Translations under genes and position numbers: made by a program
Origin: Deinococcales bacterium
Lineage (GTDB): Bacteria; Deinococcota; Deinococci; Deinococcales; JAAFIG01
Assembly: GCA_043778225.1 (NCBI GenBank)
Contig: JAYWGM010000041.1
Coordinates: 1 to 64,000 of the forward strand
Length of the DNA: 64,000 bases
Direction: 5' to 3'
Notes under the pieces: generated by a model
What the model saw: the letters and a program-made list of their open reading frames with translations, nothing else
The model's database searches: none
What the model was told of the DNA's origin: nothing
Shown: positions 1-64,000 of the stretch, in pieces
Position numbering within the stretch: the first letter of the stretch is position 1
Layout of the letters: each line of letters begins with the position of its first letter

Positions 1-186
1 CGTGCAGAGCGACAAAGAATGTATCACCCTTCTTGGGTCTTGTCAAGCAAGTCCGAAGGGTCTCGAGGATAGATGGATTATGTCGTGAAACACAGGGAAG
101 ATTTGATGCTCGAGTGATGGTTATGACCTGTGTGGACTCGAGTCTAGTTAAAAATAACTCACGAATAAGTTTTGTATAATTCTGCA

Positions 187-593
187 ATGCCGTATAGCCA
201 TTTTGGACTTGCTGAACTCGCTAAACAATTTTTGCTCGAGGTTAAAGATGCTGTCTGGCTTGAGGCGGTACCGCGAATTGAGCCATCGATTTTACTCAAA
301 ACTTGGCTAAGTCAAAATGTGGCTTTTGCAGTGGCACAATCTACCGAAAAAGCCCGAAGCGAATTCATGACTGCACCAATTTTAGCCGAAGTTCGTCAGT
401 ATTTTGCGGGTCGAGTTTTCAACCAGCGTGAAGGACAACCCTACGAACGAATTTGGGAGTTGTGACGATTGGTGATGAATGGCAATTCTTGAAACTCGAG
501 AACAGTGTTTTGTATGTGGATAGCAAGCGCTATGACCTTGAAGAACTGCCAGAGATTCTCGGTATTTTAGTTTGGATGCTCGAGACCGCTTAA
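187..593 (+). pseudogene. Disrupted PD-(D/E)XK-like hypothetical protein (family common in cyanobacteria)
   Basis: Frame 1 reads MPYS..TEKARSEF..APILAEVR..FNQREG and stops at 465. The family-like C-terminus GVVTIGDEWQFLKLE..ILGIL continues in another frame to TAA at 593, consistent with one G lost in 'tgggagtt'. The central region that I recall for this family (CDF..VEAK) appears deleted. Confidence 0.6.
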
Positions 594-621
594 AAGAAAA
601 TCCCCGAAAAAGACGGGGATT
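594..621. terminator. Putative intrinsic terminator between convergent genes
   Basis: aatccccg-aaaaaga-cggggatt hairpin with a flanking A-run. Confidence 0.55.
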
Positions 622-642
622 GGTCTGACAAATACCGAAAAT

Positions 643-1182
643 TTAGTTGCAGTTATTAATCACATCAATTCTATCGCCAAATGAACCACTCGAGGATGCA
701 CCTGCTGAGTCAAACACGGCAAGTCGCAATTCCGTAGTACCAATCACATTTGGATTGGCTGGCAACGGCTTAGGTGCTGGAACAACCACCAAGGCTTGTG
801 GTTTTAAGGATTGTGGCTGGAGCGGCGCATTCAAAGGAGCGGTCTGGGCTGGGATGGTCACGACATACTTATAGGTATCTCCGCTTTTTTCGTATAAATT
901 TGTTTGTGAGACAAGAATATCCCCAGCTGGAACTTGATAATCTCCTGTTTTCTTGCCAAATAATGTACCTTTGAATCGGGTCAATGCACCCGATTGGCGT
1001 TCAACAGCATCGAACTGAATAAAAACATCAGTATCTTTATTATCGCAAATATACGATTTTCCGCTATCACTTCGGTACTGGCTAATGAATTTAATTTTGA
1101 AAGCATCCACAAAAACCAAGCCCGTATCCAAGCAACTTGAGAGCAGTGCCGCTAATCCAACCCCTAGAAGAATCTTTTTCAT
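643..1182 (-). CDS. Lipoprotein, unknown function
   Basis: MKKILLGVGLAALLSSC signal with lipobox; TATGCT lies 7 nt before this ATG (leaderless), so the start is placed at 1182. Confidence 0.75.
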   Translation of the reverse strand: MKKILLGVGLAALLSSCLDTGLVFVDAFKIKFISQYRSDSGKSYICDNKDTDVFIQFDAVERQSGALTRFKGTLFGKKTGDYQVPAGDILVSQTNLYEKSGDTYKYVVTIPAQTAPLNAPLQPQSLKPQALVVVPAPKPLPANPNVIGTTELRLAVFDSAGASSSGSFGDRIDVINNCN

Positions 1183-1264
1183 GGGTCTTAGCATACTCGA
1201 GAATTGGGTTTTGGCATGAGATGCAGTTTAATTTGTCTTTACCTGAGCTTGAGGTGAACTTTAA

Positions 1265-1561
1265 CTAATCAAGCTCGAGAACTTCAAAAGTTTCGTTGCA
1301 AACAGTATATTCGCCATTTGCCACCACAAAGCTCGAGACATCTTGTAGTACGCCATCCAGCCAAGTGGCATCGTGGGAAATACTGACCACACCAATAATT
1401 TCCCAATCGTGAGCATTTAAGCCATCCAAGCGAGCCACCGAAACTGGAAACCTTGCTTTAAGGCGTTCGGTAACCGGGCGAATCAGGGCGCGTTTTTCTT
1501 TGAGGTTACTGACCCATGGCATCTCGAGCCGAGCCGTATAAACACCGATATAGCCAAGCAT
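1265..1561 (-). CDS. DUF503 family protein
   Basis: [43 protein letters not shown] is the typical DUF503 N-terminus. Confidence 0.8.
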
Positions 1562-1562
1562 C

Positions 1563-1772
1563 TTAAAGCATTCCAGCCAAATAGCCAACGCTTCGCACTG
1601 CTCGCAGTAAATCCATAACGGTGGCGAGGGTTGGGTCAAAACTGACTTCGATTTGTCCAGTGTGCGGATTATTGACTTCGGCTACCCCACTGACGGCTTG
1701 TAGCGAAGCCATAACTTTGGCGGCGGCTTCTTCGGTGGTTAAACCTCTGACCCCAAGTAAAACGCGATTCAT
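1563..1772 (-). CDS. Heavy-metal-associated (CopZ-like) fold protein lacking CxxC
   Basis: 69 aa HMA-like pattern (VRGL...[10 protein letters not shown]...VRSVGY) with no cysteines; TAGAAT 6 nt before ATG. Confidence 0.65.
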
Positions 1773-1835
1773 GGGTGTATTCTACACGGTCTGTAGCCCA
1801 CATCGTTCACTCATTTTATTTTTTAGACTCGAGCA

Positions 1836-3074
1836 ATGCGAATACTTGGTTTGGTTCTGATTGCACTTTCGGGCTTGGCAGTTTCACAAGGTAAGCCATC
1901 TTTTGGGCAAAACGGTACAGTGCGCCTCGAGAATACCATTGCTAAATATGTGCCTAAAGCCGTGCTGAATGCCCAAGGGCGAATTGTGCTGAGTGGTGAA
2001 ACTGCCAATAAAATGCAAACCGTGGTGCGTTTACAAGCCAACGGACAACTCGACTCGAGTTTTGGGGTGCTGCGCCTCAAGGCATTAGGGCAAGTTTTCG
2101 TGGATGCCCAAAATCGGGTGTTGGTGGTGCAAAAAAAGCAAATTCTGCGCTTCAATCTCAGCGGTGTGCTTGACTCGAGTTACGGTATAAAAGGTATCTA
2201 CACTTTTCCAACTGGCACACAAAAAACTGTTCTACCAATGCAAAAAGTGGTCTTTAATTCAGACGGCTCAATTTGGGCAGCTTTGCTCAAATCGCCTCGA
2301 GTTGCCAACGAAGACCCCGATAGCAACTATTTGACACCGCAACTGATAAAAATAACTAACCAAGGGCGCTTGGACACGGGTACTGGCAACAAAGGCTTTG
2401 TCAATACCAAACTCGAGCATCCAAATGTGCGAATTGATGCTTTGGTGCGAACCTCGAGTGGCGGGGTAGCGATGGCTTCGTCTGGCAATTTGAACAGTCC
2501 AGCAGGCGTTTCGACTTACCAACCGCCGATTTGGATTTATCGTTTTAATCAAAATGGGCAACTCGAGCCTCAACAAAAAACCGATGGATTTGAAGCCCTA
2601 ACCTGCACCAATGGTGGAGCAGTAGAATTTTTTGCAGTACGCCAAGACAATAGCGCTGTTTTTATCAACAGCAACAGTGGCGATTGCAACTATATGTACC
2701 GAATTTGGTCACTTGATGCAGCTAACCAAGTCCAAAAAGAATTTGCCCAAGAATTACCCGAGGAAGGTACAGAAGGTGCAGCCTTGGTTAAATCACAAAA
2801 TGGTACTTTACTTTTGCTTGACCCAAAAATCTCGAGTTTAAGAAAAGCCATGTTGTATCAAGATGGCAGTTTGGTTTTTTATGGTGCAAGCAACAAAACC
2901 ATTCAATTCCAGAAAATAAGTCGGTCAGGTGCAATAGATACAGTTTTTGGCAAAAAAGAAATACCGAATCCGTTCAAATCCACGGATTACACTATTCTCG
3001 AGTCCGAAGATAATAAAATACTATTGGTCGGACTCGAGAATGGCGCTTGGAGCGTCAAGCATCTGGTTTTTTAG
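1836..3074 (+). CDS. Secreted beta-propeller-like protein with delta-60-type repeats
   Basis: Signal peptide and repeated R-x-x-x-x-G-x-L-D-x-x-F/Y-G motifs ([27 protein letters not shown]). Confidence 0.65.
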
Positions 3075-4381
3075 ACTTGTTTATGTTCGCTGTCCGAGAA
3101 TTCATCTTCAAAGAATTCAAAGGCGAACTCTCCAATTTTGACGGTATCGCCCGGTTTAACCCCAGCGCGGCGCAACTGGGCGTTCAGACCTTCGCGCTTA
3201 AAGAGTTTCTCGAGGTAATCGGCTGCATCTTCTAAATGTCTCGAGAAACGGTCAATCCGAGCGCCAAATGTTCCACCTGTGACGTTCCACAAGCGTGTGC
3301 CGTCGGCGTAGAAGTCGGTGTCGGCAGTCACACGAACTGGTTCTGGTCCGGAGATGGTCTCACGCACCACAAGGCTTGGGCGTTTGACTTTGGCAGGCAA
3401 GATTTGAAATAGCGTTTCGCGCAAATCGGTTAAACCCGTCCCCTCGAGTGCCGAGACACACAAGACTGGCAGCCCAAAGTCAAACAATTCGCGTTCGTGC
3501 ATTTCACGGATTTCATCGTCTATTAGGTCGAGTTTATTTAAGATAATCATCGCGGGTAACTCGAGCAGGGTAGGGTCGTAACTCTGGAGTTCAAACCGCA
3601 AGGCTTCTAAATGTTCACGCGGCGCTTCGTTGCCATCCAGCACAAAAGCCAACAAGCGTGTTCTCGAGATATGACGCAAGAACTCAAGACCTAAGCCCTT
3701 GCCTTCATGCGCCCCTTCGATGATGCCGGGAATATCGGCAAGGGTTAAACGGCTTAACTCGTCATCGCCACGTTCGATGATACCCAAAATCGGGTTTAAG
3801 GTCGTGAACGGATAAGCTGCCACTTCGGGGTTGGCATTCGACATGGCTCGGAGCAAGCTCGATTTACCAGCGTTTGGATAGCCGACCAGACCAATATCGG
3901 CAATGAGACGCAACTCAAGCCGAACTTTCAGGTCATCACCCATCGTGCCAAGTTCGGCAAAACGCGGACTGCGGCGGGTGCTGCTCGAGAAAGCCGAGTT
4001 ACCACGCCCGCCTAAGCCACCCCGAGCCACCATTTGAACTTGCCCAACCTCGAGCAAATCGGCAATCACTTTATTGGTGGCTAAATCGATGCAAATCGTA
4101 CCAACTGGCACATCCAGAGTAAAATCTGCGCCATCTGCGCCGTGCATTAAGCGCCCCGCACCATAGCCACCATTTTCGGCTTTGAATTTGCGTTTACCAA
4201 CAATATTGGTCAGGGATTCGACCCCCTGAATTGAGCGCAAAAACAGACTGCCGCCCTTGCCGCCATGTCCGCCATCCGGACCACCTTTGGGCTGATGCGA
4301 ACCACGAAGGAACGACATACTGCCATCGCCACCTTTACCTGCGGTTAATTCAATCTCGAGAACATCACGGAACTTTGTCAA
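3071..4381 (-). CDS. obgE: GTPase ObgE/CgtA
   Basis: Gly-rich Obg N-terminus ([12 protein letters not shown]), [23 protein letters not shown]; likely TTG start after a GGTGG RBS. Confidence 0.97.
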
Positions 4382-4451
4382 ATGACCACCTACACTTGCT
4401 ATGAAAAAACATTTATGGCTGATGCGTTTCATAGCTCATGACGCATAGCCG

Positions 4452-4478
4452 AAAAAAGCCCCGCCAAAAAGCGAGGCT
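4452..4478 (-). terminator. Putative terminator after rplU-rpmA
   Basis: agccccgc/gcgaggct stem followed by a T-run on the minus strand. Confidence 0.5.
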
Positions 4479-4500
4479 CGAGAATTCAAAGCCTCATTCC

Positions 4501-4773
4501 TTAATCGTCTGCCGCAGCAGCCAATTGTTCGATATGAATAAAACGCCCAAAAGCGCCTTTATCTTGAAATTTGACTGTGCCTGTTTCTAAGGCAAACAAA
4601 GTATGGTCGCGTCCCATACCGACATTTTTGCCAGCATTGAACTTTGTGCCACGTTGACGAACCAAGATGTTACCAGCTTTGACCAATTCGCCACCAAAGC
4701 GCTTTACGCCAAGGTATTTTGGATTGCTGTCGCGTCCGTTGCGGGTGCTACCCACGCCTTTTTTGTGTGCCAT
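4501..4773 (-). CDS. rpmA: 50S ribosomal protein L27
   Basis: [16 protein letters not shown]...[10 protein letters not shown]. Confidence 0.98.
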
Positions 4774-4817
4774 AAAATTTTCAACTCCTCTTTGCGCGCC
4801 CGTGACGGCGCACAGTC

Positions 4818-5328: not shown

Positions 5329-5331
5329 AAA

Positions 5332-6827: not shown

Positions 6828-6894
6828 GATGTCCAGTCTAACCGAAACGAACCTTGGTTTTTGTTGGCTCGAGAACCGAGGTTTAGAGAATGAG

Positions 6895-6974: not shown

Positions 6975-6980
6975 GGCGGC

Positions 6981-7412
6981 TGGAAAGGGGCGTGGTCGCG
7001 CATAAGGCTCGTTTACTCGAGCGCAATTGTGAGGAAAGTCCGGGCATCACAGGGCTGGATGCCAGCTAACGGCTGGGCGGCGAGTGAACCACAAAGCAAT
7101 GACACGATTGTTTTGCAGGCGCGAAGCCGACGGAAAGTGCAACAGAAAATAAACCGCCTGGCTCTTGAAAAAGAGATAAAGGTAAGGTTGAAACGGTGGT
7201 GTAAGAGACCACCAGCGCGGCTCGAGAGAATCGCGGCTCGGCAAACCCCATCTGATGCAAGGCTCGAATGCAACCAAGAGGAAACTCGAGACATGACCCG
7301 TGTCCGATGAGTTGCGAAGACAGCCGCTAGAGGTCAGTGGCGACACTGGCTCGAGATAGATGACCACGACGTGCTTTTTGCATAGGACAGAACCCGGCTT
7401 ACACCCTTTCCA
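6981..7412 (+). ncRNA. rnpB: RNase P RNA (bacterial type A)
   Basis: GAGGAAAGTCCGGGC, GGAAAGTGCAACAGAAA, GAAACGGTGGTGTAAGAGACCACCAGC, GGCAAACCCC..GCAAGG, GATAGATG, ACAGAACCCGGCTTA; terminal pairing tggaaaggg/ccctttcca. Confidence 0.95.
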
Positions 7413-7592
7413 AACCCCTCAAGTTTTAGCTGACAAGATTTTGGCATTTAGACCAGAGTGCAATTTTGAATCTTGTCTAACAGACCAGTTAGGGGTTAAA
7501 TTCTGCTTAACCAATTCATTGCACACTCATTGTGCATACGTCTTTTTGCACAGTGCATAAGAACTTTGGTCTTTTTCGTAGTCGGAGGTGAC

Positions 7593-18526: not shown

Positions 18527-20652
18527 GTTTGACTCCTTATGGGCTTAAAAACAACAACTTCGGGTTGGTGAGGCGCAGCGAGCGAATCCACCAAGCGTTC
18601 AAGTCTGGCTGGCGTGACCTTAAAATCGGGCATTTTGCTGGTTGGGTCGAGGGTGCTTTTAGTCAGTCGGTTGGCATTCTCAAGACCCGCATAATGAAAA
18701 GTGCTAAAAACCGTATCTTCGCGGATGCCATCTTTAATCAGCACTTCAAATTCGGCACTGCCAGCCTCGGTCAGCACCCGCACTCGCTCGCCCGTTACAA
18801 TGCCGTACCTCTGGGCAAGATTGGGGTGAATCTCGAGAACCGCATTTGGAGCTTTGGGATTGAGTTTTGGGTTGCGACGGGTTTGTGTGCCACTTTGATA
18901 CTGATGAGCGTTGCGACCAGTGGTAAAAAAGACAGGGCGTTCAAAGCTGGCAAGCTCGGCGGGTAAACGGTACGCGACTGGCTCGAGGTGCGCCAAGCCA
19001 TCTGGGTGAGCAAAACGAATCTTAAATGGCTCGGGCGTTCCAGCATGACCCAAGTCGGTACACGGATAAAAAATACCATTTGGCTCGAGTTTTTCGTAAG
19101 TAATGCCCGAATAATCAGCTTTTGAGCCTTTGGTGGCGGCGGCTAATTCTGTAAAAATTTCTCGAGGGTTAGCAAAGGCAAACTTTTCTGGCACACCAAG
19201 CAGCGCCGCCAAATCACAAAGAATTTGCCAGTCGGCTCGAGTTTCGCCCGGTAAATCGGCTACCCGCCGCCTTCGCAAAACCCGCCCCTCGAGGTTGGTC
19301 ATTGTGCCATCTTCCTCGAGCCACATACTGCCGGGCAGCACCACATCGGCAAGTTGGGCGGTTTCGGATAAGAAAAAATCAATCACCACCAAATGCGCTA
19401 AGCTGCCTAAGTTACGAGTAATGACCGTGCTGTTGGCGGCACTGACGACGGGGTTTGAGCCAATCACCAATAAGCCCTGAATTTTTGTGCCACACGCCTC
19501 GAGTAATTCCTGAGCGCTCAAGCCTTTGCGCGGTAATTCGGACTCGGTAATGCCCCAAAAATCGGACATCAAGGCTCGAGCCATCGGGTCTTCGATCAAA
19601 CGGTAGCCCGGTAACTGGTCGGCTTTCTGCCCATGTTCACGCCCGCCCTGACCATTGCCTTGACCAGTCAGAGGTGCATAAAAACCACCCATCGCCAGTG
19701 CCAAATTGATTAGCGCTTTAATCGTCTCGACTCCTCGAGAAGACTGCTCTGGACCACGCCCCGACAAAATCAGCAATTGAGTGGCGCTGTTGCCCATGAC
19801 TCTGGCGGTTTCGAGAATGGTAACTGCATCTAAGCCACAACGGGCGGCTGCCCAAGCTGGCGTGCAGTAGCGGACACTGGTTGCTACTGCTTCCCAGCCA
19901 GAAACTCGAGCCTCGAGAAACGCTATATCAATCAGGTTTTCAGTCAACAAAACATGGAGTAAACCCAGTGCCAACGCCAAATCGCCGCCGGGTTGAACGG
20001 GCAAATGCAGTGTGCCAAGTTTGGTGCTTGGCGTGGCTCGAGGGTCTATAACGATAATTGGCGCACCATTTTTACGCGCCCGAGCCACAAACTGCGAAAC
20101 TGGCGGCAGGGTTTCGGCTAAGTTACTGCCCCACAGCACAATGCAGCTTGCTTCGGCAACCTGCTCGAGTGGAAACGGCAGCCCCCTGTCCATGCCGTAG
20201 ACTGCCCGCATGGCTGCGCCAGCGCTGCTCATGCAGTAGCGCCCGTTGTAGTCTATATTGGCGGTTTTTAAGGCAACTCGAGCAAACTTGCCAAGCAAAT
20301 ATGTTTTTTCGTTGGTCAGGCTGCCACCACCAAAAATCGCAAAAGCATTGCGCCCGTGTTGGCTTTGAATGCGCTGTATGTTGCTCGAGACTCGAGTTAA
20401 AGCCTCTTCCCAAGTGGCGGCTACAAGTTCGCCATTGTGGCGCACCAAAGGCGTGAGCAAGCGTTCTGCATGGTGTGGTTCTTCGAGGGCTGCCAAGCCT
20501 TTTTTGCAGACCGAACCTCGAGCCACAGGGCAAGCGGGAGTACTGCGAAGCGCCAGTAGCTCGTTGCCTTGGTGTTCGATTTCAAAAGTACACTGCACCG
20601 CGCAGTATGGACAGGTGGTTAAAGTGACTTGTGTGGGTTGCTCGAGGGTCAT
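18523..20652 (-). CDS. Assimilatory nitrate reductase catalytic subunit (molybdopterin oxidoreductase)
   Basis: CPYCAVQC...CKKG 4Fe-4S motif, NGRYCMSSA, LTGQGNGQGGRE, TTGR..Q, DP.SKMP.FK. Confidence 0.9.
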   Translation of the reverse strand: MTLEQPTQVTLTTCPYCAVQCTFEIEHQGNELLALRSTPACPVARGSVCKKGLAALEEPHHAERLLTPLVRHNGELVAATWEEALTRVSSNIQRIQSQHGRNAFAIFGGGSLTNEKTYLLGKFARVALKTANIDYNGRYCMSSAGAAMRAVYGMDRGLPFPLEQVAEASCIVLWGSNLAETLPPVSQFVARARKNGAPIIVIDPRATPSTKLGTLHLPVQPGGDLALALGLLHVLLTENLIDIAFLEARVSGWEAVATSVRYCTPAWAAARCGLDAVTILETARVMGNSATQLLILSGRGPEQSSRGVETIKALINLALAMGGFYAPLTGQGNGQGGREHGQKADQLPGYRLIEDPMARALMSDFWGITESELPRKGLSAQELLEACGTKIQGLLVIGSNPVVSAANSTVITRNLGSLAHLVVIDFFLSETAQLADVVLPGSMWLEEDGTMTNLEGRVLRRRRVADLPGETRADWQILCDLAALLGVPEKFAFANPREIFTELAAATKGSKADYSGITYEKLEPNGIFYPCTDLGHAGTPEPFKIRFAHPDGLAHLEPVAYRLPAELASFERPVFFTTGRNAHQYQSGTQTRRNPKLNPKAPNAVLEIHPNLAQRYGIVTGERVRVLTEAGSAEFEVLIKDGIREDTVFSTFHYAGLENANRLTKSTLDPTSKMPDFKVTPARLERLVDSLAAPHQPEVVVFKPIRSQT

Positions 20653-30899: not shown

Positions 30900-32464
<1,565 letters not shown>

Positions 32465-32465
<1 letters not shown>

Positions 32466-37705: not shown

Positions 37706-38740
37706 ATGTCCGTTTCTGTGCTGACTCAAGCAATGCCAAGCCGTTTTGAACCCCAAACCATTCAAAGCGCCCAGGTGTTTTTAGCTGATGCCTTGGATGT
37801 TTATTCGCTTTGGGCAACTCCGACCATTATTTTTTCAGATGGAGCGTATGGTATCGGTGGTTTTGCTGGCGACCCCGTTCAGCCATCGGGTTTACGAGAA
37901 TGGTACGAACCTCATGTGCGTCAATGGTCAGCCAAAGCCAATGGTCAAACAACCCTTTGGTTCTGGAATACCGAAGTTGGTTGGGCAACTGTTCATCCCT
38001 TGCTACTCGAGTATGGCTGGGAATACCGTGGCTGTAATATATGGGATAAAGGCATTGGACATATTGCTGGAAATGCCAATACCAAAACCTTACGAAAATT
38101 TCCTGTTGTCACCGAAGTATGCGCTCATTACACCAAAGCAGTTCGTTTTGATTTTCAGGGACAGCAGCTTTCGATGCAGCAATGGTTACGCGCCGAGTGG
38201 TTACGGACAGGCTTACCGTTAAGTAAAACTAATCAGGCTTGTGGTGTGGTAAATGCGGCTACCCGAAAATACTTTACCAATTGCCACTTATGGTATTACC
38301 CTCCCGTAGAAATGTTTGAAAAAATTGTTGAATATGCCAATCGTTACGGAGAGCTTTCCCAACGACCCTATTTTTCAGTCAATGGTCTCGAGCCACTATC
38401 GGCTTTAGAATGGGGGCAAATGCGAGCAAAATTTAAGCTCGAGTACGGGATTACCAATGTTTGGTCTACACCACCAGTGCGTGGCACGGAACGACTCAAA
38501 AACAGTCATGGTACACTCCACGCCAATCAAAAGCCACTTTCTTTAACTGAACGTTTAATTCTTGCAACTTCTGAACCCAACGACATCATTTGGGAACCAT
38601 TCGGTGGACTTGCCACCGCAGCCCTAGCCGCAATTCTCAATGACCGTCAGTGCCTAACTGCCGAGATTTCAGAATCTACCTATAAAGACGCAATTCAAAG
38701 ACTACGGCTCGAGTCAGAGCGCCTTGCTTTGAATTTCTAA
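37706..38740 (+). CDS. Amino-DNA methyltransferase (N4-C/N6-A, beta-class order)
   Basis: N-terminal SDGAY (DPPY-position variant), H.NQKP, C-terminal WEPFGGLAT SAM-binding motif. Confidence 0.85.
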   Translation: MSVSVLTQAMPSRFEPQTIQSAQVFLADALDVYSLWATPTIIFSDGAYGIGGFAGDPVQPSGLREWYEPHVRQWSAKANGQTTLWFWNTEVGWATVHPLLLEYGWEYRGCNIWDKGIGHIAGNANTKTLRKFPVVTEVCAHYTKAVRFDFQGQQLSMQQWLRAEWLRTGLPLSKTNQACGVVNAATRKYFTNCHLWYYPPVEMFEKIVEYANRYGELSQRPYFSVNGLEPLSALEWGQMRAKFKLEYGITNVWSTPPVRGTERLKNSHGTLHANQKPLSLTERLILATSEPNDIIWEPFGGLATAALAAILNDRQCLTAEISESTYKDAIQRLRLESERLALNF

Positions 38741-52478: not shown

Positions 52479-53201
52479 ATGTCATCCATTCCAGTTGTCT
52501 TACTGCACGGTCATACCCTCGACCGTCGAATGTGGCAGCCGCAACTCGAATTTTTTAAGCCCTGTCAAGCCCCGACTTTGCGCGGCTATGGTGGCTCGAG
52601 TCCTCCCACAACCCCGTTTTCTTTTGCCGAAGATGTCCACAATTTACTCAAGGGATACCAAAAAATTCATTTGGTCGGTTTAAGTCTGGGTGGCAATGTT
52701 GCGCTTGAAATGGCAATTCGTTACCCAGAACGAATTCAAACCCTAACCCTGCTTGACTCGAGCCTCAAGGGTTTTACGCCAGACCAAGCCCAAATTGAAG
52801 CTGGAGCAACTGTGCAAACTGCCTTTGAAAATGCTGGACTCGAGGCAGCCAAACAAACTTGGTTGGACTTACCGCTTTTTGCCTCGGCTCGAGAAAATCC
52901 TGTACTAGAAAAGCAACTGGGGGCTTGGGTAGCCGATTATTCGGGCTGGCATTGGGTGCAAAATATCAGCCCATCGGCAGCCATTGCCGATGTCTCGAGC
53001 CGATTAGAAGAAGTCAAAGCCAAAACCCTAATTGTGGTTGGCGCTCGAGATGTGGCTTATTTTCAGAATGTGGCACGGTACTTGCACCAAAAGATTGCTG
53101 ACTCGAGACTCGAGGTTGTGGCGGGGGCTGGGCATCTGGTCAATCTCGAGCAGCCAGAAGTGGTAAACGCCTTACTCGAGTCTCATTTCTTGGCTTGGTA
53201 G
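52479..53201 (+). CDS. Alpha/beta hydrolase
   Basis: LLHG, GLSLGG nucleophile elbow, AGHL.NLE. Confidence 0.9.
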   Translation: MSSIPVVLLHGHTLDRRMWQPQLEFFKPCQAPTLRGYGGSSPPTTPFSFAEDVHNLLKGYQKIHLVGLSLGGNVALEMAIRYPERIQTLTLLDSSLKGFTPDQAQIEAGATVQTAFENAGLEAAKQTWLDLPLFASARENPVLEKQLGAWVADYSGWHWVQNISPSAAIADVSSRLEEVKAKTLIVVGARDVAYFQNVARYLHQKIADSRLEVVAGAGHLVNLEQPEVVNALLESHFLAW

Positions 53202-54081: not shown

Positions 54082-54159
54082 AATTAGGATATAGATTAGG
54101 AATTTTGAGTTCAAAGAATCCATAAAGTTTGAATTAACGATATGCTGTTGGTAATTATC

Positions 54160-57100
54160 ATGTCAAAGAAAAATAAGCAGCCTCGCAAATCGCAAGCTCG
54201 AAGCCTTGAAAATTCTTTACGGGTTTTTGGTATCCATGAAAAAAGTGTCGCAGTTAAAATCAATAGTCGTACTTCCGTCATACAACGAGAGCGCAATAGC
54301 ACACATACATTAGTGCGAAATGCCAAACAATATATTCGCACAGTAGTTCATCCTGATTTATATGAGCAGGTTTTAGATTGGTATCAATCAGCTTTTAGAT
54401 TGCCTATAGATGAAGTGGCTATTAAAGTTCAAAAATCCATTGAACTACTTTCACCTGATACAGCATTCGGGGCATTACCACTTCGTAGTGAACTCTTTTG
54501 GGCAGCAACTATGCTGTCTAAAAGAGTTGAGCATCTTATCAAATTCCTAAACTTGTCATCTTCATTTTCTGATGCAATTATGTCTGGTGATAAAGCTTTA
54601 GCAGAAGAGCTTCTAGTCAAGGTTGAACTAATAACAGGGCAATCTTTCTGGCTAATAGAAGCAAAATTAGCTTTCCTTCAGTTTGAATATGGACTTGAAC
54701 AACAAAAAGCATATGCAAACACTTTTCAAGAATCTGCGCCTGCCAGTTTTGCGGCTTTTGTAGCCCATTATATCAGCCAACGGAATGAAGAAAGCGTTTC
54801 ACCGACAAGAATGTCCACTGCATTTCGGCAAAAACTGGATTCATGGAGTATGGCATCTGATTTACGCGATTATGTCGAATATCGAGTAATAGGAGATTTA
54901 CCAACTTCACGAACTTCTCTGGCTAACATTCTTGTAATTGAAGGCGAAATGTCTATCATTGACCTATTAGACACATTTTTCCGTATTGCTACTGTACTAT
55001 CAGTTGAAGGGGACGATACTGACAAAAATCTAATTGCCACAATTTTGACAAAGTTCCCCAAGCTACCAGATATTCGATTTAGCGTACTTGCCCAAGTTGT
55101 GGGTTGCTCCTATGTACCACTTCCTCCAGCAAAAACTGAACTTATTCTTGCAACTAATGCCTATTTAAGTGGTCAAATTTCTATTGCTCGAGATATATTG
55201 AATGGGTATCTACTTTCTTATCCTTCCGACGTACTAGGTTTATTTGAAGCGGCTCGAGTTGGTGTTTATTTTGACCCGCTCAAGCCTTCCAATTTACAGG
55301 AAACTATGTTGCAGTTGATGACAGATACGTTTCGGCGAGACATTGAACTGAATCTAGCACTATCAAAATTAGATAAATTATCTCGAAACTTCCGTTTTCT
55401 AAATATAGGATTACCACTACAAGCCTTAGTTCAACAGTTTGATTTTATAAATCCAAAAAAGCACAAGCAACTTGAAACCATGTTATTTATTGCTACACCT
55501 GCTATACATCCTAGTCATGCAATCGGACTGAATGGGGAAAATCGTAGCATTTTTATAAATAAATGTTCAGAACACTTTACCCAATGTTCAACGCTAGAAT
55601 TTGCTCAAATTACTATTGGTCAGAAACCCCTAGGTTCTAATCTAAGTATAGACAATTACATATGGGCGCAATATCATTTTGCGCTTCAAAAGTCTGATAA
55701 AAAGGAAATAATTAATTGCCTAAATCAGCTTTCTCAAAGCTCTGATTCCATTTCAAAACGTGCTGCTATTAGTGAAAAAATTTTAGCACTTTCAGTTATG
55801 CAACAACTTGAAGAAGCGATAAAACTAATTGCCACTACAATTGTTTCAGACCCGCTTTGTCAGCGTTCACTACCCTTACAAGCAGTATTCGCAGAGAAAA
55901 CCTATTCACAGCTTGAAGTATTTCGGTTTGAACCATATGTACATATTGGACTCATGGCGTATTTTCAACAGTCGGATGACAAAGATGCTTTTGACAGCCT
56001 CCGTTCTTTATGGGACGAGTTTATTGATTCGAGAGGTATATTTGATTTATCTGATTTAGAGTATTACTGCGAGCAATTTTCTAAAGAAGTTACGATTTAC
56101 TTTCTACGCTATGTTTGTATTGAAGACGTGATGGATATAAGTACATTATTTTCAACCTCTATTGAAGTCAGTATTCAGCGTTCAAAAATCTGTGAGAGAT
56201 TAATGGATTTAGACCCAGAAAATGCGCCCGAATACCGCCAAGAAATTGTTGAAACCTCAAAGCAAATGAAAGTCCTTGAAGGGTTGCAGCATTTTGACCA
56301 GAGTCGAGTGTACGTTAATGGAGAAGCACTATTTCGTTGGGGAAATCGAGAATTGATTGAGCCATTTGATCGCTATACTCGTCTTATTGAAGCAGGCTTA
56401 GGAGGGTCAGAAGAAGAATTTGAAGAAGCTATCAAACAATACACGAATACTGGCAACGTATTGCCAAAAAAATTCCTTGAAATACCCACAACTGAGTCTA
56501 TAGCTTTGCTGCTTGAGATGATTGATCGTTTTTGGAGTGAATATAGATACCATCCCTTGCATGGACTCGATAGCTATCTTAGTTTACGCATACGTCATGG
56601 TTCGTTATCAGGTCATTTAAGAGGACCTTTTGAACAAGATAAACTTCTTATCACAGAGGATGAATCCGAGGAAAGTCTTAATAAACTCAGATTATGGTTT
56701 GATGAAGAAGCAGAGATTAGTGAATTAAAAATTACTGAAATAATACAAATCTTCAAAAAATTTTCGGATTCTTTTCAGAAAATAATTAGTCGGTTGAATC
56801 ACGACTTACTCCAAATTAGAAGTGACATTAAACCTAATGGATTATTCCTAAATACTATTCAGGAGAATTACTTACGGTATATTAAGAAAAAAACAGACCA
56901 GCCACCGAATCTCGAAGAGTTCTTGACTGCTTGTAGCATTGTTTTTGAGCTAGTCATTCGTGAAGCTATGACACATATACGAACTGAGCTTACTGAAAAT
57001 ACTATGCTTGCAGTCGAACAATGTGTTGGATGCTTTAAAGACTCACTAAATAATATACTTACGGAAAATGAGTTCAGCAGCTTACGTGCTGCTATCTCCC

Positions 57101-57702
57101 ATAGGTTTACAGATTTTCAAACAGCTATTACGCAAGTTTCAGAATGGTTCAAAGGTGATGTACGAGCGTTTGCTGCTGTGAGTTTTACATTTGATGAGAT
57201 ACTAGATGTGGCTGTGGATGTAATTCGTCGAACACATCGTGGTCGTAATTTCGAGTTGATTCGTAAGATTGACATTGAAGAGCGTCAAGGTATGGATGTT
57301 TTACAAGAAGTGGTAGATATTTTATTTATTGTTTTCGCCAATGCTTTGACTCATTCCAAAATTTCAGATAATTTGTGCATTGAAATACTTGCTAGTAAGG
57401 TCGAGTCTAACCATACCTTAAAAATACGAATCAGTAATAATGTTTCGCCTGACGTAAAAACACCAGACTGTATCGAAAAACTCAACTCGATTCGCATGTC
57501 AATAGAATCAGAAGAGTATCTTGGTCATACGCATTTAGAAGGGGGTACAGGACTAAAGAAACTAAAAAAAATCGCATCTGCACACCAAAACCATAATCTT
57601 AGTTATGGTTTTGGTGATGAAAATACTTTTTTCGTGGATCTGGAACTGGCAATGCTTAGTACCCCAGTTGCGCCAGTCGAAATCCCGAATATCGAGGTGT
57701 AA
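54160..57702 (+). CDS. dtcA: Detocs DtcA-like sensor: large helical region plus C-terminal histidine-kinase-like ATPase
   Basis: LS.RIRHG (candidate phospho-His), FANALTHS N-box, EGGTGLKKL G-box; followed by REC and REC-PNP genes. Confidence 0.75.
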   Translation: MSKKNKQPRKSQARSLENSLRVFGIHEKSVAVKINSRTSVIQRERNSTHTLVRNAKQYIRTVVHPDLYEQVLDWYQSAFRLPIDEVAIKVQKSIELLSPDTAFGALPLRSELFWAATMLSKRVEHLIKFLNLSSSFSDAIMSGDKALAEELLVKVELITGQSFWLIEAKLAFLQFEYGLEQQKAYANTFQESAPASFAAFVAHYISQRNEESVSPTRMSTAFRQKLDSWSMASDLRDYVEYRVIGDLPTSRTSLANILVIEGEMSIIDLLDTFFRIATVLSVEGDDTDKNLIATILTKFPKLPDIRFSVLAQVVGCSYVPLPPAKTELILATNAYLSGQISIARDILNGYLLSYPSDVLGLFEAARVGVYFDPLKPSNLQETMLQLMTDTFRRDIELNLALSKLDKLSRNFRFLNIGLPLQALVQQFDFINPKKHKQLETMLFIATPAIHPSHAIGLNGENRSIFINKCSEHFTQCSTLEFAQITIGQKPLGSNLSIDNYIWAQYHFALQKSDKKEIINCLNQLSQSSDSISKRAAISEKILALSVMQQLEEAIKLIATTIVSDPLCQRSLPLQAVFAEKTYSQLEVFRFEPYVHIGLMAYFQQSDDKDAFDSLRSLWDEFIDSRGIFDLSDLEYYCEQFSKEVTIYFLRYVCIEDVMDISTLFSTSIEVSIQRSKICERLMDLDPENAPEYRQEIVETSKQMKVLEGLQHFDQSRVYVNGEALFRWGNRELIEPFDRYTRLIEAGLGGSEEEFEEAIKQYTNTGNVLPKKFLEIPTTESIALLLEMIDRFWSEYRYHPLHGLDSYLSLRIRHGSLSGHLRGPFEQDKLLITEDESEESLNKLRLWFDEEAEISELKITEIIQIFKKFSDSFQKIISRLNHDLLQIRSDIKPNGLFLNTIQENYLRYIKKKTDQPPNLEEFLTACSIVFELVIREAMTHIRTELTENTMLAVEQCVGCFKDSLNNILTENEFSSLRAAISHRFTDFQTAITQVSEWFKGDVRAFAAVSFTFDEILDVAVDVIRRTHRGRNFELIRKIDIEERQGMDVLQEVVDILFIVFANALTHSKISDNLCIEILASKVESNHTLKIRISNNVSPDVKTPDCIEKLNSIRMSIESEEYLGHTHLEGGTGLKKLKKIASAHQNHNLSYGFGDENTFFVDLELAMLSTPVAPVEIPNIEV

Positions 57703-57704
57703 TC

Positions 57705-58181
57705 GTGAATCTACTTCTTGTGGAAGATGATCTACCTAAACGAATTCAGATTGCCGAATGGGTCAACGAATTCCTACCTGACGTTGTATTAACAATTGAA
57801 TATTCCGTAAATGCAGCAATGCGGGCTATTAAAAATAATCTATTTGATTTAATCATTTTAGATATGTCATTACCAACATATACACCGATGGGCAACGAAT
57901 CTGGAGGAAGACCACAGGGCTTTGGGGGGCAAGAAGTTTTACGTTTATTAGACCGACGCAAGCTGTCTCCAGTCGTTGTAGTTGTGACTCAATTTCAAAC
58001 ATTTGGTACTGGTAGTGAGTTAGTAACTTTAGAAATGCTTGCAGAAAGTCTTAATACAGTCCATCCACAAACATTTCGCGGTATTGTGTTTTACGAAGGA
58101 GCAAATGGGTCATGGAAAAACGTACTTCACGAAAAGATATTTAGTGCTATACAACTTGGAGAGTCAAAGAATGAAATTTAA
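57705..58181 (+). CDS. dtcB: Detocs DtcB-like stand-alone response regulator receiver
   Basis: LLLVEDD, LIILDMSLP, VVVVTQF. Confidence 0.78.
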   Translation: MNLLLVEDDLPKRIQIAEWVNEFLPDVVLTIEYSVNAAMRAIKNNLFDLIILDMSLPTYTPMGNESGGRPQGFGGQEVLRLLDRRKLSPVVVVVTQFQTFGTGSELVTLEMLAESLNTVHPQTFRGIVFYEGANGSWKNVLHEKIFSAIQLGESKNEI

Positions 58182-59391
58182 GGTTTTAGTTGTTGATGAT
58201 ACCTCTGCGAAGATTGCTCAAATTATTGATGTTTTACAAATAGGCAATATAGAACGTGCCAATATTGAAACTGCTCAAACAGGTATTGAGGCACTTAGGC
58301 AACTTCAACAAAACAAGTTTGACCTTATGGTTCTTGACCTTGCGCTACCATTTCGTGCTGAAAATCAGCCTTCTCTTAAAGGAGGAATCGAACTTATAGA
58401 GGAGTATATTAAACACAGCAAATATCATAAGCCAACACACGTGATTGGATTAACTGCTTATGAAGACCTCAAGGATGAATCAAAAAATTATTTTGATGAG
58501 CGTTGTTGGTCATTATTAAGCTACAGTGCTACAAATCAATGGAAACGAAGACTGTCGGAGTATGTTGAATATGCAGAAAGTGCAAGTAAGAGTCTCGAAG
58601 ATGCGTCTTACGTCACGGACTTGTGTATAGTGACTGCCCTCCCTACTCCAGAGTTACAAATGGTTAGGCAACTCAATTGGAATTGGTCACAGGCTTTACC
58701 AATGGACTCTACTACTATGGTGTATAGGGGGACTATTTCAATAAATGGGCAAGAGTTTACTGTTGTAGCTGCTTCAAGTTTACGAATGGGCATGGTTGAG
58801 AGTGCGCTTTTAACATCGAAACTTATTGCAAAATTTCGTCCTCAAGTCGTGGCAATGTGTGGAATTTGTGCCGGAGTTTCAAATTCAGTAAATATTGGTG
58901 ATGTAATACTGGCGGATGCAACATGGGATTATCAGAGTGGTAAAAGGACAATTTCTAATTCAGGTTCGGAGTTATCTGTTGCTCCTGACATTATTTCCGT
59001 TTCCGATAATGTAATATCACGGTTTCAAGAACTTGCTAATCGCACAAATATCTGGAGTGATATTGAAAATAAATGGCTGGGCGAAAAACCAACTCATTCA
59101 CTTCGTGCCAAAATTGGTCCTATTGCATCGGGGTCTTCGGTCGCAGCAGATGGGGAAACTATTGTAGAAGTTCGAGAACAACATCGTAAACTTCTTGGTA
59201 TTGATATGGAAATATATGGTGTTTATGCTGCAAGTCGGGCTGCTTTAATTCCAAAACCAATGACCTTCGCTCTTAAATCCGTATGCGATTTTGCAGATGG
59301 GCAAAAAGATGATAAATTCCAAGCGTATGCTGCGTTTACAAGCGCGAAAGCCCTAGAAGCATTGGTTGAAACATTATTGCCCTATTTGTAG
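58171..59391 (+). CDS. dtcC: Detocs DtcC-like receiver fused to a PNP/nucleosidase effector
   Basis: VLVVDD...LDLALP receiver, then GICAG, IGDV, WDYQSGK, IASGS, GIDME, KSVCDFAD. Confidence 0.82.
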   Translation: MKFKVLVVDDTSAKIAQIIDVLQIGNIERANIETAQTGIEALRQLQQNKFDLMVLDLALPFRAENQPSLKGGIELIEEYIKHSKYHKPTHVIGLTAYEDLKDESKNYFDERCWSLLSYSATNQWKRRLSEYVEYAESASKSLEDASYVTDLCIVTALPTPELQMVRQLNWNWSQALPMDSTTMVYRGTISINGQEFTVVAASSLRMGMVESALLTSKLIAKFRPQVVAMCGICAGVSNSVNIGDVILADATWDYQSGKRTISNSGSELSVAPDIISVSDNVISRFQELANRTNIWSDIENKWLGEKPTHSLRAKIGPIASGSSVAADGETIVEVREQHRKLLGIDMEIYGVYAASRAALIPKPMTFALKSVCDFADGQKDDKFQAYAAFTSAKALEALVETLLPYL

Positions 59392-59503
59392 CTTATTGAA
59401 CTAGCCTTCATATGTAGTTTGATGGGAATACACTGCTTCGAGTTTCGGTGCTTGAAGTATTGGCTTAAAATCTTTGTTTAGAATGTTCGAGTATACTCAA
59501 GGT

Positions 59504-59812
59504 ATGGACATCAGTACCCGTCAACCCAACCCAAACGATTCAAAATTTGCCACTCGAGGCGAGAGGATTACATTTACCAGCCAACCGCTCGAGAAAGAAG
59601 TTCTCACCACGCAAGAAGCGGCAGACTGGTTGTGTATATCACGTCCGCATTTTCTGCGCTTGCTCAAGCGTGGGCGATTGCCTTTTCATAAAGTTGGTAA
59701 TCAACGCCGTGTGAATTTTGCAGATGTAAAAGCCTTCCAAAAGAATCGCCGTGAAGCCGCTCTGAACGAACTAACCGCGCTCAGTCAAGAAATGGGTTTG
59801 TACAACCTCTAA
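59504..59812 (+). CDS. Excisionase-like HTH_17 DNA-binding protein
   Basis: [33 protein letters not shown] 6 nt before ATG. Confidence 0.85.
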
Positions 59813-61851: not shown

Positions 61852-62843
61852 TAAAAAGTTTTCTCGTGCCAGCGCAACACACTGGCAGCCCAGGTCAGAC
61901 CCGCGCCAAACGTGACCATCAGCAAATGGTCGCCGTCCTTAATTCGCCCGTCGTCTATGGCTTCGCGCATCGCCAGACCAATGCTGGCGGCACTGGTGTT
62001 GCCATAACGGTCAACATTGGCAACCACACGCTCTTCGGGCAATTTTAAGTATTCTCGAGCCGCGTCAATAATTCGGTAATTGGCTTGGTGCGGAATAAAC
62101 TGGGCGATGTCCTCGAGCGTTAAACCCGCCTCGAGAACCGCTTGTTCGGTGGCGGTGTGCATCACCCGCACGGCAAACTTAAAAACCTCGCGCCCGTTCA
62201 TCGAAACAAATTCGGAAAGTGGGTTGCCATCGGGCAGGGTTTTATTGATACAGCGCATATTCAGGTGCTTGCCGCCAGCCCCATCTGTCCCCAGCACAAA
62301 ACTCTTAAAGCCATAGTGGGCTGGCACAGCTTCAACAATCCCAGCGCACGCCCCATCACCAAACAGCACCAAAGTGGTGCGGTCGGACCAATCAAGAATT
62401 TTGGTCAAGGATTCTGCGCCTATCGCCAGAACTTTTTTACGGATGCCACTTTTGGTATAAGCCGCCGCCACCGAAAGCGCATAAAGCCAGCCAGGGCAAG
62501 CCGCCAATAAATCAAAAGCCCCAGCCTCGAGACCAAAATGATGCTGGACCAAAGCTGCTGTTTGTGGAAAAAGCGCATCTGGGGTGCTGGTCGCCACAAT
62601 CACCATGTCCACACCATCCAAGACATTTGCACCATAACGCCGCACCAAGTCCTCGACTGCGCCAATACACAAATGACTGGTGAATTCGTCGGCTCGAGCA
62701 AAACGCCGTTCTTTAATTCCAGTACGGCTCTGAATCCACTCGTCCGACGTTTCTACCCCACGCCGCGCCAAATCGTCGTTGGTCACGATTTCTTCTGGAA
62801 CATACGCGCCAAGTGCGGTTAAACCAACAAAACTCGAGTTCAT
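61851..62843 (-). CDS. fabH: 3-oxoacyl-ACP synthase III
   Basis: WI.SRTGIKERR, AAC, LFGDGA, MNGREVFK, PHQAN, GNTSAAS, FGAGLTW. Confidence 0.95.
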   Translation of the reverse strand: MNSSFVGLTALGAYVPEEIVTNDDLARRGVETSDEWIQSRTGIKERRFARADEFTSHLCIGAVEDLVRRYGANVLDGVDMVIVATSTPDALFPQTAALVQHHFGLEAGAFDLLAACPGWLYALSVAAAYTKSGIRKKVLAIGAESLTKILDWSDRTTLVLFGDGACAGIVEAVPAHYGFKSFVLGTDGAGGKHLNMRCINKTLPDGNPLSEFVSMNGREVFKFAVRVMHTATEQAVLEAGLTLEDIAQFIPHQANYRIIDAAREYLKLPEERVVANVDRYGNTSAASIGLAMREAIDDGRIKDGDHLLMVTFGAGLTWAASVLRWHEKTF

Positions 62844-62865
62844 GTAAGGACACAGTATACGCCCA

Positions 62866-62953
62866 AGGGCAAGGTGAAAGGGTCAAAAGGAGAAAAGGTG
62901 AAAAGGTCAAAGGGTGAAAAGCAAGAGTTACTTTTGACCTTTTTGTTCCTTTG
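62866..62953. repeat. 8-bp-period inverted tandem repeat
   Basis: ggtgaaag ggtcaaaa ggagaaaa ggtgaaaa ggtcaaag ggtgaaaa ... ttttgacc. Confidence 0.8.
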
Positions 62954-62988
62954 CGCTCATCACCCAAATATGAGTAGAATAAGCCCAC

Positions 62989-63741
62989 ATGGTCAAAGTC
63001 ATCGCCATCGGAGACATTCACACAGACTGGGGTTTGCTTTACGGCGCACTCAAAGCCTCGTTTGCAATGGATGCTCAAGGCAACCCGACTGCGCCAGTTC
63101 TTGATGGGCGCTACAAAGTCATTTTGATGGGTGATTTGGTTCACCCCAAAACAATTGCCCGCTATGAGGAAATTACTGGGCGCGAAGGCTACGATTTCCG
63201 TGACCCCGACCACTTAAAAAGCGCTTCTCGGGCGCAGACTCGAGAACTCTATAAAATTAAAGAATATGTCGAAAAAGCGGCTGGCAACGTTGAAATTATT
63301 TTAGGCAACCACGACGATGCTGCCCTCGAGCATAAGTTTTTACTGGGCAACGCCATGGGCGTGATTCATGCCGAATTTGACCCCAACAAAAGCGGTACGC
63401 CACTGCCCGAAGACCTACAAGACTGGATTCGTGGCTTTAAGCGCTATATTCGCATTGAAGGGATTCATTTTTCGCACGCCGGACCGCTGCCGGGGATGAT
63501 GTACTTTGACGACTTTTTTTACAACGACCGTGATTCCAAGCACTGGTGGCACGAGAAACCGCACTACCTCAAAGACGCTGGGCATACCTTTGGGGTCTAC
63601 GGACACACCGTCATGAAAGAGGGGATTGTGCTAAACCTCGAGTCTGGCTTTGCGATGATTGATGCCCTCGAGAAGCGCCAATACCTCGAAATGCTGATTG
63701 GCGACGACGGGCAATTTCAGGCTCGAATCGCAAATTTTTAA
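62989..63741 (+). CDS. Calcineurin-like metallophosphoesterase
   Basis: IGDIH, MGDLV, GNHD, HAG, GHT. Confidence 0.88.
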   Translation: MVKVIAIGDIHTDWGLLYGALKASFAMDAQGNPTAPVLDGRYKVILMGDLVHPKTIARYEEITGREGYDFRDPDHLKSASRAQTRELYKIKEYVEKAAGNVEIILGNHDDAALEHKFLLGNAMGVIHAEFDPNKSGTPLPEDLQDWIRGFKRYIRIEGIHFSHAGPLPGMMYFDDFFYNDRDSKHWWHEKPHYLKDAGHTFGVYGHTVMKEGIVLNLESGFAMIDALEKRQYLEMLIGDDGQFQARIANF

Positions 63742-64000
63742 GGCAGTACCGCAATCACTTCGACCTCGAGCCGAACTTCGGGGCTACCCAGCGAAGCCAC
63801 AATTAAACCCGTGTGCGGTGGGCGGTGCAAACCAAAAAATGCCAGCCGAGCTTCGGTGACGGCTTTAGATTCGGTGCTGTCCACCAGATACGTCGTGATT
63901 TTAACTACGCTTTCCCTTGGGAAACCAGCCGCCTCGAGAACTGCTGCTAGATTCTGGTACACCTGTTTGGCTTGGGCAGCCGCATCAAAAGGCGCAACCA
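63738..64000 (-). CDS. RidA/YjgF family protein (5' end lies outside the window)
   Basis: NL.AVLEAAG..VVK.TTY...P..T...V..L..P...LEVE.IA. Confidence 0.8.
   Translation of the reverse strand, partial: VAPFDAAAQAKQVYQNLAAVLEAAGFPRESVVKITTYLVDSTESKAVTEARLAFFGLHRPPHTGLIVASLGSPEVRLEVEVIAVLP

Follow-up and report, generated by a model that had tools for sequence, protein, structure and literature searches.

The stretch of DNA analysed here, which we call the window, comprises bases 1–64000 of contig C41 (JAYWGM010000041.1) from a Deinococcales bacterium; the assembly holds 4,029,277 b in 107 contigs, the longest of 154 kb, with a GC content of 48.7%. The window is densely sown with one palindromic hexamer, CTCGAG, of which there are 370 copies (5.8 per kb), 347 inside genes as approximated by open reading frames (ORFs) and 23 outside them, with counts of 200, 82 and 67 in the three frames. 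One hundred dinucleotide-preserving shuffles of the window gave 8.2 ± 3.1 copies, with a maximum of 16, an excess of 45-fold. An earlier note on this DNA had called the word hyper-abundant throughout and had counted about 21 copies by hand in the first 3 kb; 21 copies do start at or before base 2997, and the abundance extends to the whole genome. There, CTCGAG occurs 24,877 times (6.17 per kb) and is the top-ranked hexamer, compared with a median hexamer count of 796; all of the large contigs carry 5.5–6.6 copies per kb and the lowest contig at least 4.0 per kb. With CTCGAG masked, a second-order Markov model of the genome expects 339 copies, giving a 73-fold excess. As a short palindrome over-represented at least 15-fold genome-wide, CTCGAG is of the same type as the cyanobacterial highly iterated palindrome HIP1 (GCGATCGC). 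The hyper-abundance is genuine and extreme and is shared by a whole family of uncultured Deinococcales, throughout whose chromosomes a force acting on the DNA word itself makes and keeps the exact hexamer; CTCGAG is an iterated palindrome of the entire lineage.

The features of the window that are used below are collected in Table 1. Both of the tandem clusters to which the earlier note had drawn attention are present, each with the sequence CTCGAGACTCGAG, and a third pair of copies lies close to the first of them.

Table 1. Features of the window discussed in the text (aa, amino acids; b, bases).
Feature	Position	Strand	Remarks
RNase P RNA gene	6980..7417	+	4 CTCGAG, at 7016, 7221, 7285 and 7350
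CTCGAG pair, 7 bases apart (CTCGAGNCTCGAG)	19905..19917 (19905/19912)	.	Third tandem pair in the window
CTCGAG pair, 7 bases apart (CTCGAGACTCGAG)	20384..20396 (20384/20391)	.	First tandem cluster of the earlier note
Carboxyltransferase gene (Pfam Carboxyl_trans)	30900..32465	-	10 CTCGAG; used for the ortholog comparison
N6_N4-class DNA methyltransferase gene	37706..38740	+	No recognisable nuclease neighbour; no counterpart in five other family genomes
CTCGAG pair, 7 bases apart (CTCGAGACTCGAG)	53102..53114	.	Second tandem cluster of the earlier note
Island genes matching PADLOC candidate defence system PDC-M60	54142..59391	+	1,186-aa protein, PDC-M60A; 450-aa protein, PDC-M60C
CTCGAG-free gap of 4,300 b	55253..59552	.	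Second longest in the genome; GC 39–42%; inside the imported island
158-aa ORF	57705-58181		Between the PDC-M60A and PDC-M60C matches

Genes were approximated genome-wide as long ORFs scored by codon usage (3,439 genes, 87% of the genome). On this proxy the density of CTCGAG is 6.21 per kb in coding and 5.90 per kb in non-coding DNA; the latter holds 3,036 copies against 73 expected from a first-order Markov model (42-fold), and intergenic segments of 30–100, 100–200 and 200–400 b carry 6.39, 6.63 and 6.31 copies per kb. Within genes the word is found in all three frames, 13,055 times as CTC-GAG, 4,361 times as xCT-CGA-Gxx and 4,454 times as xxC-TCG-AGx. Shuffling synonymous codons within genes yields 1,656, 373 and 311 copies, respectively, so that the excesses are 7.9-, 11.7- and 14.3-fold, or 9.3-fold over all frames; this shuffle preserves the protein and the codon usage, which is itself already inflated by CTCGAG. 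Permuting whole codons leaves 1,005 copies in total, 22-fold fewer than observed. The claims that the word occurs in every codon phase and between genes, and the suggestion that codon-preserving shuffles be used to challenge it, thus came out in favour of a genuine excess that is not limited to one frame.

These figures bear on the plainest explanation, namely that composition, whether of codons, dipeptides or bases, produces the excess incidentally, or that the excess consists of copies of a dispersed repeat or mobile element. It is true that CTC and GAG are favoured codons in GC-rich neighbouring families, where CTCGAG reaches 1–2.9 per kb, mostly in-frame. Against this stand the three excesses over synonymous shuffling, codon permutation and the non-coding expectation, the equal density of the word across GC contents from 45% to 62%, and the codon shares outside Leu-Glu contexts, 9% for CTC among Leu codons and 22% for GAG among Glu codons. 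Over the ten bases on each side of CTCGAG the base frequencies lie between 0.17 and 0.31, which is near random, and extension of the sites into longer palindromes is slightly below chance. The unit is therefore the hexamer alone, without a longer repeat around it; conserved sequence past the core, the signature of a dispersed repeat or mobile element, was found at none of the ten flanking positions on either side. An origin in composition or repeats is already refuted, and we give it practically no chance.

The force has pushed proteins towards Leu-Glu. Of 18,862 Leu-Glu pairs, 13,055 (69%) are written CTCGAG, where codon usage outside such contexts predicts 2.1%; the word is likewise used in 4,361 of 7,728 [S/P/T/A]-Arg-[V/A/D/E/G] triplets (56%) and in 4,454 of 10,456 x-Ser-[Ser/Arg] triplets (43%). 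Leu-Glu has an observed-to-expected ratio of 2.31, the highest of the 400 dipeptides, and Glu-Leu a ratio of 0.97. Copies of CTCGAG and of its 18 one-base neighbours stand at 24,877 to 13,793, where the masked model expects 339 to 9,142; by our arithmetic the word-to-neighbour ratio is shifted about 50-fold, which in a simple two-state model would correspond to a scaled advantage near 4.

To follow the sites between species, six genomes of the same genus were aligned to parts of the window (6.8–14.3 kb each, 78–80% identity). CTCGAG is kept in 268 of 414 site comparisons (65%), compared with 28% of 61,511 comparisons for other hexamers; these comparisons are not independent, the six relatives being kin that share sites, and we attach no P value to them. 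States with a single difference account for 9.4% of CTCGAG comparisons and 36% of those for other hexamers, and among the changed CTCGAG sites two or three differences predominate; the rarity of single-difference states indicates that the word tends to be present or absent as a whole. Where Leu-Glu is written CTCGAG the dipeptide is kept in 224 of 255 comparisons and all six bases are identical in 177 of these 224 (79%); where it is written otherwise, 53 of 87 comparisons retain it, with identical bases in six of the 53 (11%) and CTCGAG in the relative in 26. All other conserved dipeptides are DNA-identical in 38% of comparisons. CTCGAG sites are thus kept between species far beyond amino-acid constraint.

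The turnover of sites in orthologues, which the earlier note had proposed as a check, is also seen over longer distances in the carboxyltransferase gene, which was compared in eight family and 21 outgroup genomes (72–94% identical across the order; a partial family gene, L141, was excluded). Family genes carry 7–11 copies (two in G010) and outgroup genes 0–4. The occupancy of individual positions is patchy, each holding CTCGAG in one to six of the eight family genomes, and the commonest outgroup dipeptide differs from Leu-Glu (being, for example, Leu-Arg, His-Asp, Leu-Asp or Pro-Glu) at ten of the 12 in-frame positions aligned. Density is conserved more than position, and amino-acid replacement is part of the process. 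The earlier note had argued that frame-independence speaks against selection at the protein level, and this argument has gained in strength: protein-level selection cannot explain CTCGAG, because the excess is independent of frame, is present between genes, is conserved past protein constraint and is missing from an imported island of the window.

That island contains the second longest of the 14 CTCGAG-free gaps of more than 1.8 kb in the genome. Its 450-residue PDC-M60C match has a receiver domain and a PNP_UDP_1 (nucleoside-phosphorylase-like) domain, and we take the island genes to resemble the Detocs two-component defence system. Imported DNA here is without CTCGAG. The word is also missing from the two 16S ribosomal RNA (rRNA) genes of the closed family genome G013 (none in 1,505 b, with 14–15 in the 3 kb flanks), and the four copies in the RNase P RNA gene of the window are all placed in loops, in a joining stretch or in parts inserted with respect to the family model. 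The force on CTCGAG is finite, as its absence from 16S rRNA and imported DNA attests.

Gaps between copies have a mean of 160.6 b and a median of 117 b. Regular spacing was considered and rejected, as the distribution is close to exponential except for a short-range deficit and a tail of long gaps. Two copies never lie at a distance of 6, which would create GAGCTC, a word with 24 copies genome-wide. Pairs at distance 7 number 123 in the genome (0.8 of expectation) and have an unbiased middle base; distances of 8–20 that are not multiples of 3 reach 0.2–0.5 of expectation, and beyond this a 3-base periodicity dominates. In non-coding DNA the short-range deficit is confined to about 8–10 b. The variance-to-mean ratio of the counts is 0.82 in 250-b, 0.88 in 500-b and 1.0 in 1-kb windows and exceeds 1 in larger ones. 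The spacing is thus close to random except for a short exclusion zone and for some heterogeneity between regions. Around gene ends the density is flat save for three departures: 4.4 per kb in the opening 20 b of genes, 8.2–8.7 per kb from 60 to 20 b ahead of the stop codon and about 7.5 per kb directly after it.

The enrichment is a property of one family. The family of the window (f1; five genera) has 4.3–6.8 copies per kb in each of its 19 genomes (genome sizes rounded), and 22 sampled genomes from the other four families of the order carry 0.03–2.9 per kb; the survey of related genomes advised in the earlier note, made here within the order, finds the high density in every family genome and not in the neighbouring families. 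In samples of 40–120 kb from five family members with GC contents of 44.8%–62.4%, CTCGAG is the top hexamer in each. The Leu-Glu observed-to-expected ratio is 2.2–2.6 in family samples compared with 0.96–1.41 in outgroups (the ORF proxy being noisy at high GC), and the ratio of observed to synonymously shuffled copies is 3.8–9.1 in four family genomes and 1.6, 1.8, 0.8 and 0.1 in four outgroups. The lowest of these comes from family f3, which we take to be Deinococcaceae, where there is one site in 100 kb and the word is avoided. Among 40 loci counted, the seven from the closest relatives, which are metagenome-assembled genomes (MAGs), hold 4.1–9.0 copies per kb, and those from Trueperaceae, Deinococcus, Thermus and Meiothermus no more than 2.8 per kb; a small Trueperaceae locus of low GC has 15 copies in 5.9 kb. 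Every relative seen at 81% identity or more is a MAG. Between G013 and the three outgroup families compared, the identity of 16S rRNA is 84–87%. A Trueperaceae MAG (G019) was considered as an intermediate, with 1.45 copies per kb, and rejected as a clear one on a shuffle ratio of 1.6 and frames skewed 74/6/27. A scan of viral contigs for three copies of CTCGAG within ∼80 bases, covering two of the 64 parts of the collection, returned at least 126 stretches. The family signature was found in full form in none of the 80 viral loci of at least 4 kb; the densest loci are GC-rich, and in the majority of them CTCGAG shares the top ranks with other GC-rich words or is accompanied by many copies of GAGCTC.

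The genome of the window encodes about 22 DNA methyltransferases in five Pfam families. These five families were searched in six family genomes, representing all five genera and including one closed genome, and an all-against-all comparison (at least 35% identity, 60% coverage) gave no shared group present in more than two of the six; the drafts are 57–94% complete, rarer methylase families lie outside the search and specificity is not readable from sequence. The C5 family (Pfam DNA_methylase, PF00145) has no match in G010, which is 91% complete, and N6_N4_Mtase has none in the closed genome G013. The N6_N4-class enzyme of the window lacks a counterpart in the five other family genomes and is thus not a family-wide partner of CTCGAG. 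A TaqI-like adenine methylase on contig C65 (650 residues; N6_Mtase, Eco57I and TaqI_C domains) was considered as a partner and rejected, being present in only three of the 19 family genomes, with one further weak match in the search of 121 genomes; next to it lie a PIN-domain gene and an ORF without a family match, and its closest solved structures are generic adenine methylases. No Vsr endonuclease was found in any of the 19 family genomes, so that no counterpart of the Dcm/Vsr type of very-short-patch repair, which combines Vsr with a conserved C5 methyltransferase, came to light in the family. The XhoI-family nuclease (PF04555), which shares the word as its site, was likewise found in none of the 19; the search was able to find this nuclease, as it occurs in six of 102 other genomes (five of 23 in family f4 and one of 27 in f2). 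The methylases adjoining it there are of the N6_N4 class and are only 23–28% identical to any methyltransferase collected from the family, in whose genomes we thus found no XhoI-type pair of nuclease and cognate methylase.

The restriction landscape shows some further features. Family f3 avoids CTCGAG (128–942 copies per genome in G020, G024, G028, G036 and G040), yet the XhoI-family nuclease was found in none of 26 of its genomes; the nuclease–methylase pairs of f4, with the locus G021:C1:73699-77256 as an example, occur in a family that does not avoid the word. In the genome of the window, 32 of the 64 palindromic hexamers have observed-to-expected ratios below 0.1, compared with 73 of the 4,032 non-palindromes (medians 0.10 and 1.04). 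AGGCCT, GACGTC and GGGCCC occur once each, GATATC 13 times, GGCC 131 times and GATC 2,061 times. Some of the shunned words correspond to systems that the genome encodes, as GATATC does to an EcoRV-family nuclease with its methylase on contig C66; an EcoO109I-family pair is on C99. The avoidance of palindromes is a sign of heavy, changing restriction pressure.

The earlier note had proposed that the lineage possesses a motif-generating system analogous to HIP1, with methylation and repair, a nucleoid-protein site or a DNA-uptake signal as candidates. The analogy holds for the behaviour of the word, which occurs in all frames and between genes, is conserved and is absent from the imported island; methyltransferase-directed conversion did not find support. 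In Elhai's model of HIP, a methyltransferase specific for the word (here CTCGAG) would mark it, and methyl-dependent or very-short-patch repair would turn near-matches into it. The stock of methyltransferase genes in the genome, one of them with a TaqI_C specificity domain, would suit such a mechanism, and among the one-base variants of CTCGAG, changes at the outer positions are the most frequent (position 1, 3,058; position 2, 1,778; position 3, 2,098), the pattern reported for HIP1 in the available text of Elhai's paper (PMC4390886). However, for CTCGAG we found no methyltransferase that recognizes the word or its core and is present in all genomes rich in it, as that 2015 paper has it for HIP1, although enzymes of one specificity need not be orthologous. 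The patchy distribution of every methyltransferase group, including the TaqI-like enzyme, the two genomes without C5 or N6_N4_Mtase matches, the missing Vsr and the remoteness of the XhoI-linked methylases all count against the model, and no one-base variant is strongly depleted, the observed-to-expected ratios running from 0.6 to 2.5. We consider methylation-directed repair improbable. A reading that would need no methylase is that CTCGAG is the site of an abundant nucleoid or chromosome-structuring protein, a dimeric binder that would organize or compact the chromosome, with the density of sites kept by selection. The palindrome suits a dimer, the depleted distances (8–20 bases, or 8–10 in non-coding DNA) correspond in size to a protein footprint, and genes, short spacers and the surroundings of gene ends have equal densities, as if density outranked placement. 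For HIP1, the accessible part of Xu, Lawrence and Durand (2018; PMC5861425) takes conservation as a sign of selection, reports a 10–90 kb periodicity and favours a nucleoid role. We found no candidate protein, the spacing is otherwise near random, and gaps as long as the 1.5 kb of 16S rRNA and the 14 of more than 1.8 kb are tolerated, so that we regard this role as unlikely, if less so than directed repair. A Chi-like signal, at which a helicase–nuclease would stop degrading DNA and start recombination, would make CTCGAG a mark of self inside the cell and not at uptake. The absence of the word from imported DNA and a palindrome that can be read from either direction are in keeping with this, and a Chi-like role is one of the two mechanisms suggested for HIP1 in what is available of Kamoku and Nielsen (2024; bioRxiv 10.1101/2024.09.10.611283). 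The PDDEXK_1 domain of AddAB/RecB-type nucleases, however, is found in eight of 12 family genomes, not including that of the window, and in 12 of 12 in each of three neighbouring families; this patchiness also led us to reject an AddAB/RecB-type nuclease as a family-specific reader. Known Chi words are oriented, non-palindromic and far less enriched. A Chi-like role accordingly comes last in our ranking, which runs approximately from a self-DNA word in uptake or recombination through a nucleoid-protein site and methylation-directed repair to the Chi-like signal.

The reading to which we incline, by analogy and tentatively, with less than even confidence, is that CTCGAG may serve as a self-DNA word read during DNA uptake or recombination. 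The word would tag the family's own kind of DNA and be read in natural transformation or in the recombination that follows; DNA with CTCGAG would be taken up or integrated preferentially, variants gaining the word would spread and variants losing it would be replaced. This would be molecular drive of the kind accepted for uptake sequences, and unlike HIP1 the tag would work without a conserved methyltransferase. Such specificity would need a conserved protein that reads CTCGAG. The fuller version is doubtful, being more demanding: the family would have evolved a HIP-type word independently, a family-specific protein would read the unmodified word for self recognition in uptake or recombination, and drive would have filled about half of the synonymous opportunities and reshaped the proteome. 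We count in favour of the self-DNA reading the missing word in the imported defence island and the fact that no conserved methyltransferase was found. The presence of ComEC and DprA, each in 18 of 19 family genomes, makes transformation plausible. In two papers on HIP1, as far as their available text goes, the palindrome raises transformation efficiency in a partly methylation-dependent manner, with an uptake or Chi-like role suggested (bioRxiv 10.1101/2024.09.10.611283), and correlates with pilus and competence genes and not significantly with DmtA or DmtC, with a role as an uptake sequence proposed (Rodriguez-Cruz et al., 2026; PMC13756078).

Several observations weigh against the self-DNA reading. 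ComEC and DprA are not discriminating, because the Thermus and Deinococcus control genomes carry both. No protein reading CTCGAG was identified. Known uptake sequences are longer than this hexamer and, against its six copies per kb, about six times sparser. A drive that favours cheap placement should load intergenic DNA above genes, yet the densities are equal, and the spacing is near random (variance-to-mean ratios of 0.82–1.0 in windows of 250–1000 b). Site conservation does not separate selection from biased conversion. Finally, in the available portion of the 2024 preprint (bioRxiv 10.1101/2024.09.10.611283) the effect of HIP1 on non-homologous DNA required methylation, and here we found no conserved methylase. 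As a separate observation on the competence genes, DprA lies 1.6 kb upstream of a divergent D12-class methyltransferase-like gene (380 residues), with a 277-residue ORF between them (C89:21497-24828).

Comparison with known systems places CTCGAG closest to the HIP words. Like HIP1 and the alternate cyanobacterial HIPs, it is a short GC-containing palindrome that is tens of times over-represented in all frames and between genes; as with HIP1, it is conserved between related genomes and scarce in imported DNA, and its one-base variants are commonest at the outer positions. It differs from HIP1 in belonging to another phylum, in having six letters instead of eight, in its density (about six per kb compared with roughly one per kb for HIP1, going by the available text of PMC4390886), in its strong Leu-Glu imprint on proteins and in its methyltransferases: HIP1 has DmtA and DmtC, and in the CTCGAG family we found no conserved enzyme. 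The uptake signal sequences (USS) of Pasteurellaceae and the DNA uptake sequences (DUS) of Neisseriaceae resemble CTCGAG in being lineage-specific and genome-wide, in their cost to proteins, in their rarity in foreign DNA, in the presence of competence genes and in the availability of molecular drive as an explanation. USS and DUS have 9–12 letters, are non-palindromic, occur about once per kb and often form inverted pairs in terminators; CTCGAG is a bare six-letter palindrome, is six times denser and does not extend into longer palindromes, so that in the form of the word it does not belong with them. It coincides with the XhoI restriction-modification site, and XhoI-family nucleases with adjacent N6_N4 methylases do occur in the order, but restriction sites are normally avoided, and here the word is greatly enriched in a family where the nuclease was not found. 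In full-text searches of the literature that combined CTCGAG with palindrome, over-representation or Deinococcus, no publication was found to report its abundance; the matches inspected concern its methylation in other organisms only, and the available text of Elhai's HIP paper (PMC4390886) mentions neither CTCGAG nor Deinococcus. CTCGAG is best seen as a case of iterated palindrome from a second phylum, exceeding HIP1 in density and showing no link to a methylase.

For three decades the function of HIP1 has been a matter of debate inside one phylum, and a second independent case would make the problem comparative. Here the density is higher, the word is another and the sampled genomes range in GC content from 45% to 62%; the neighbouring families lack the word, and one of them avoids it. 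Explanations now have to account for HIP1 and CTCGAG alike, and for the latter without a conserved methylase, which bears on methylation-centred models. The size of the imprint, with 69% of Leu-Glu pairs written as CTCGAG and the dipeptide over-used 2.3-fold, means that a force at the DNA level can override protein optimization. In practical terms, CTCGAG flags native as opposed to imported DNA and offers a handle for XhoI digestion, methylome reads and oligonucleotide pull-downs.

Some minor features of the window remain to be described. Bases 40001–44000 have an AT skew of +0.139 and only ten copies of CTCGAG in the 4 kb, and include a gene for a protein with two SnoaL-like domains. Dispersed hairpin repeats made of AAAAGG-type units and their complement occupy intergenic positions at 16256–16350, 17193–17314 and 30775–30905; they give 27–92 BLAST hits in the genome and contain no CTCGAG. 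A GC-rich, structured-looking element of ∼170 b lies between two reductase genes at 20715–20880. Of three public sequencing runs listed for this DNA, two contain the stretch, both in the form of assembled contigs and not of raw reads, and no RNA run containing it is among them. The repeat families of the window, being without CTCGAG, are unusable as an internal clock for gains and losses of the word. The GC-rich element, which likewise has none, is present in ∼10 copies in the genome at ∼88% identity and matches no Rfam family at the gathering score.

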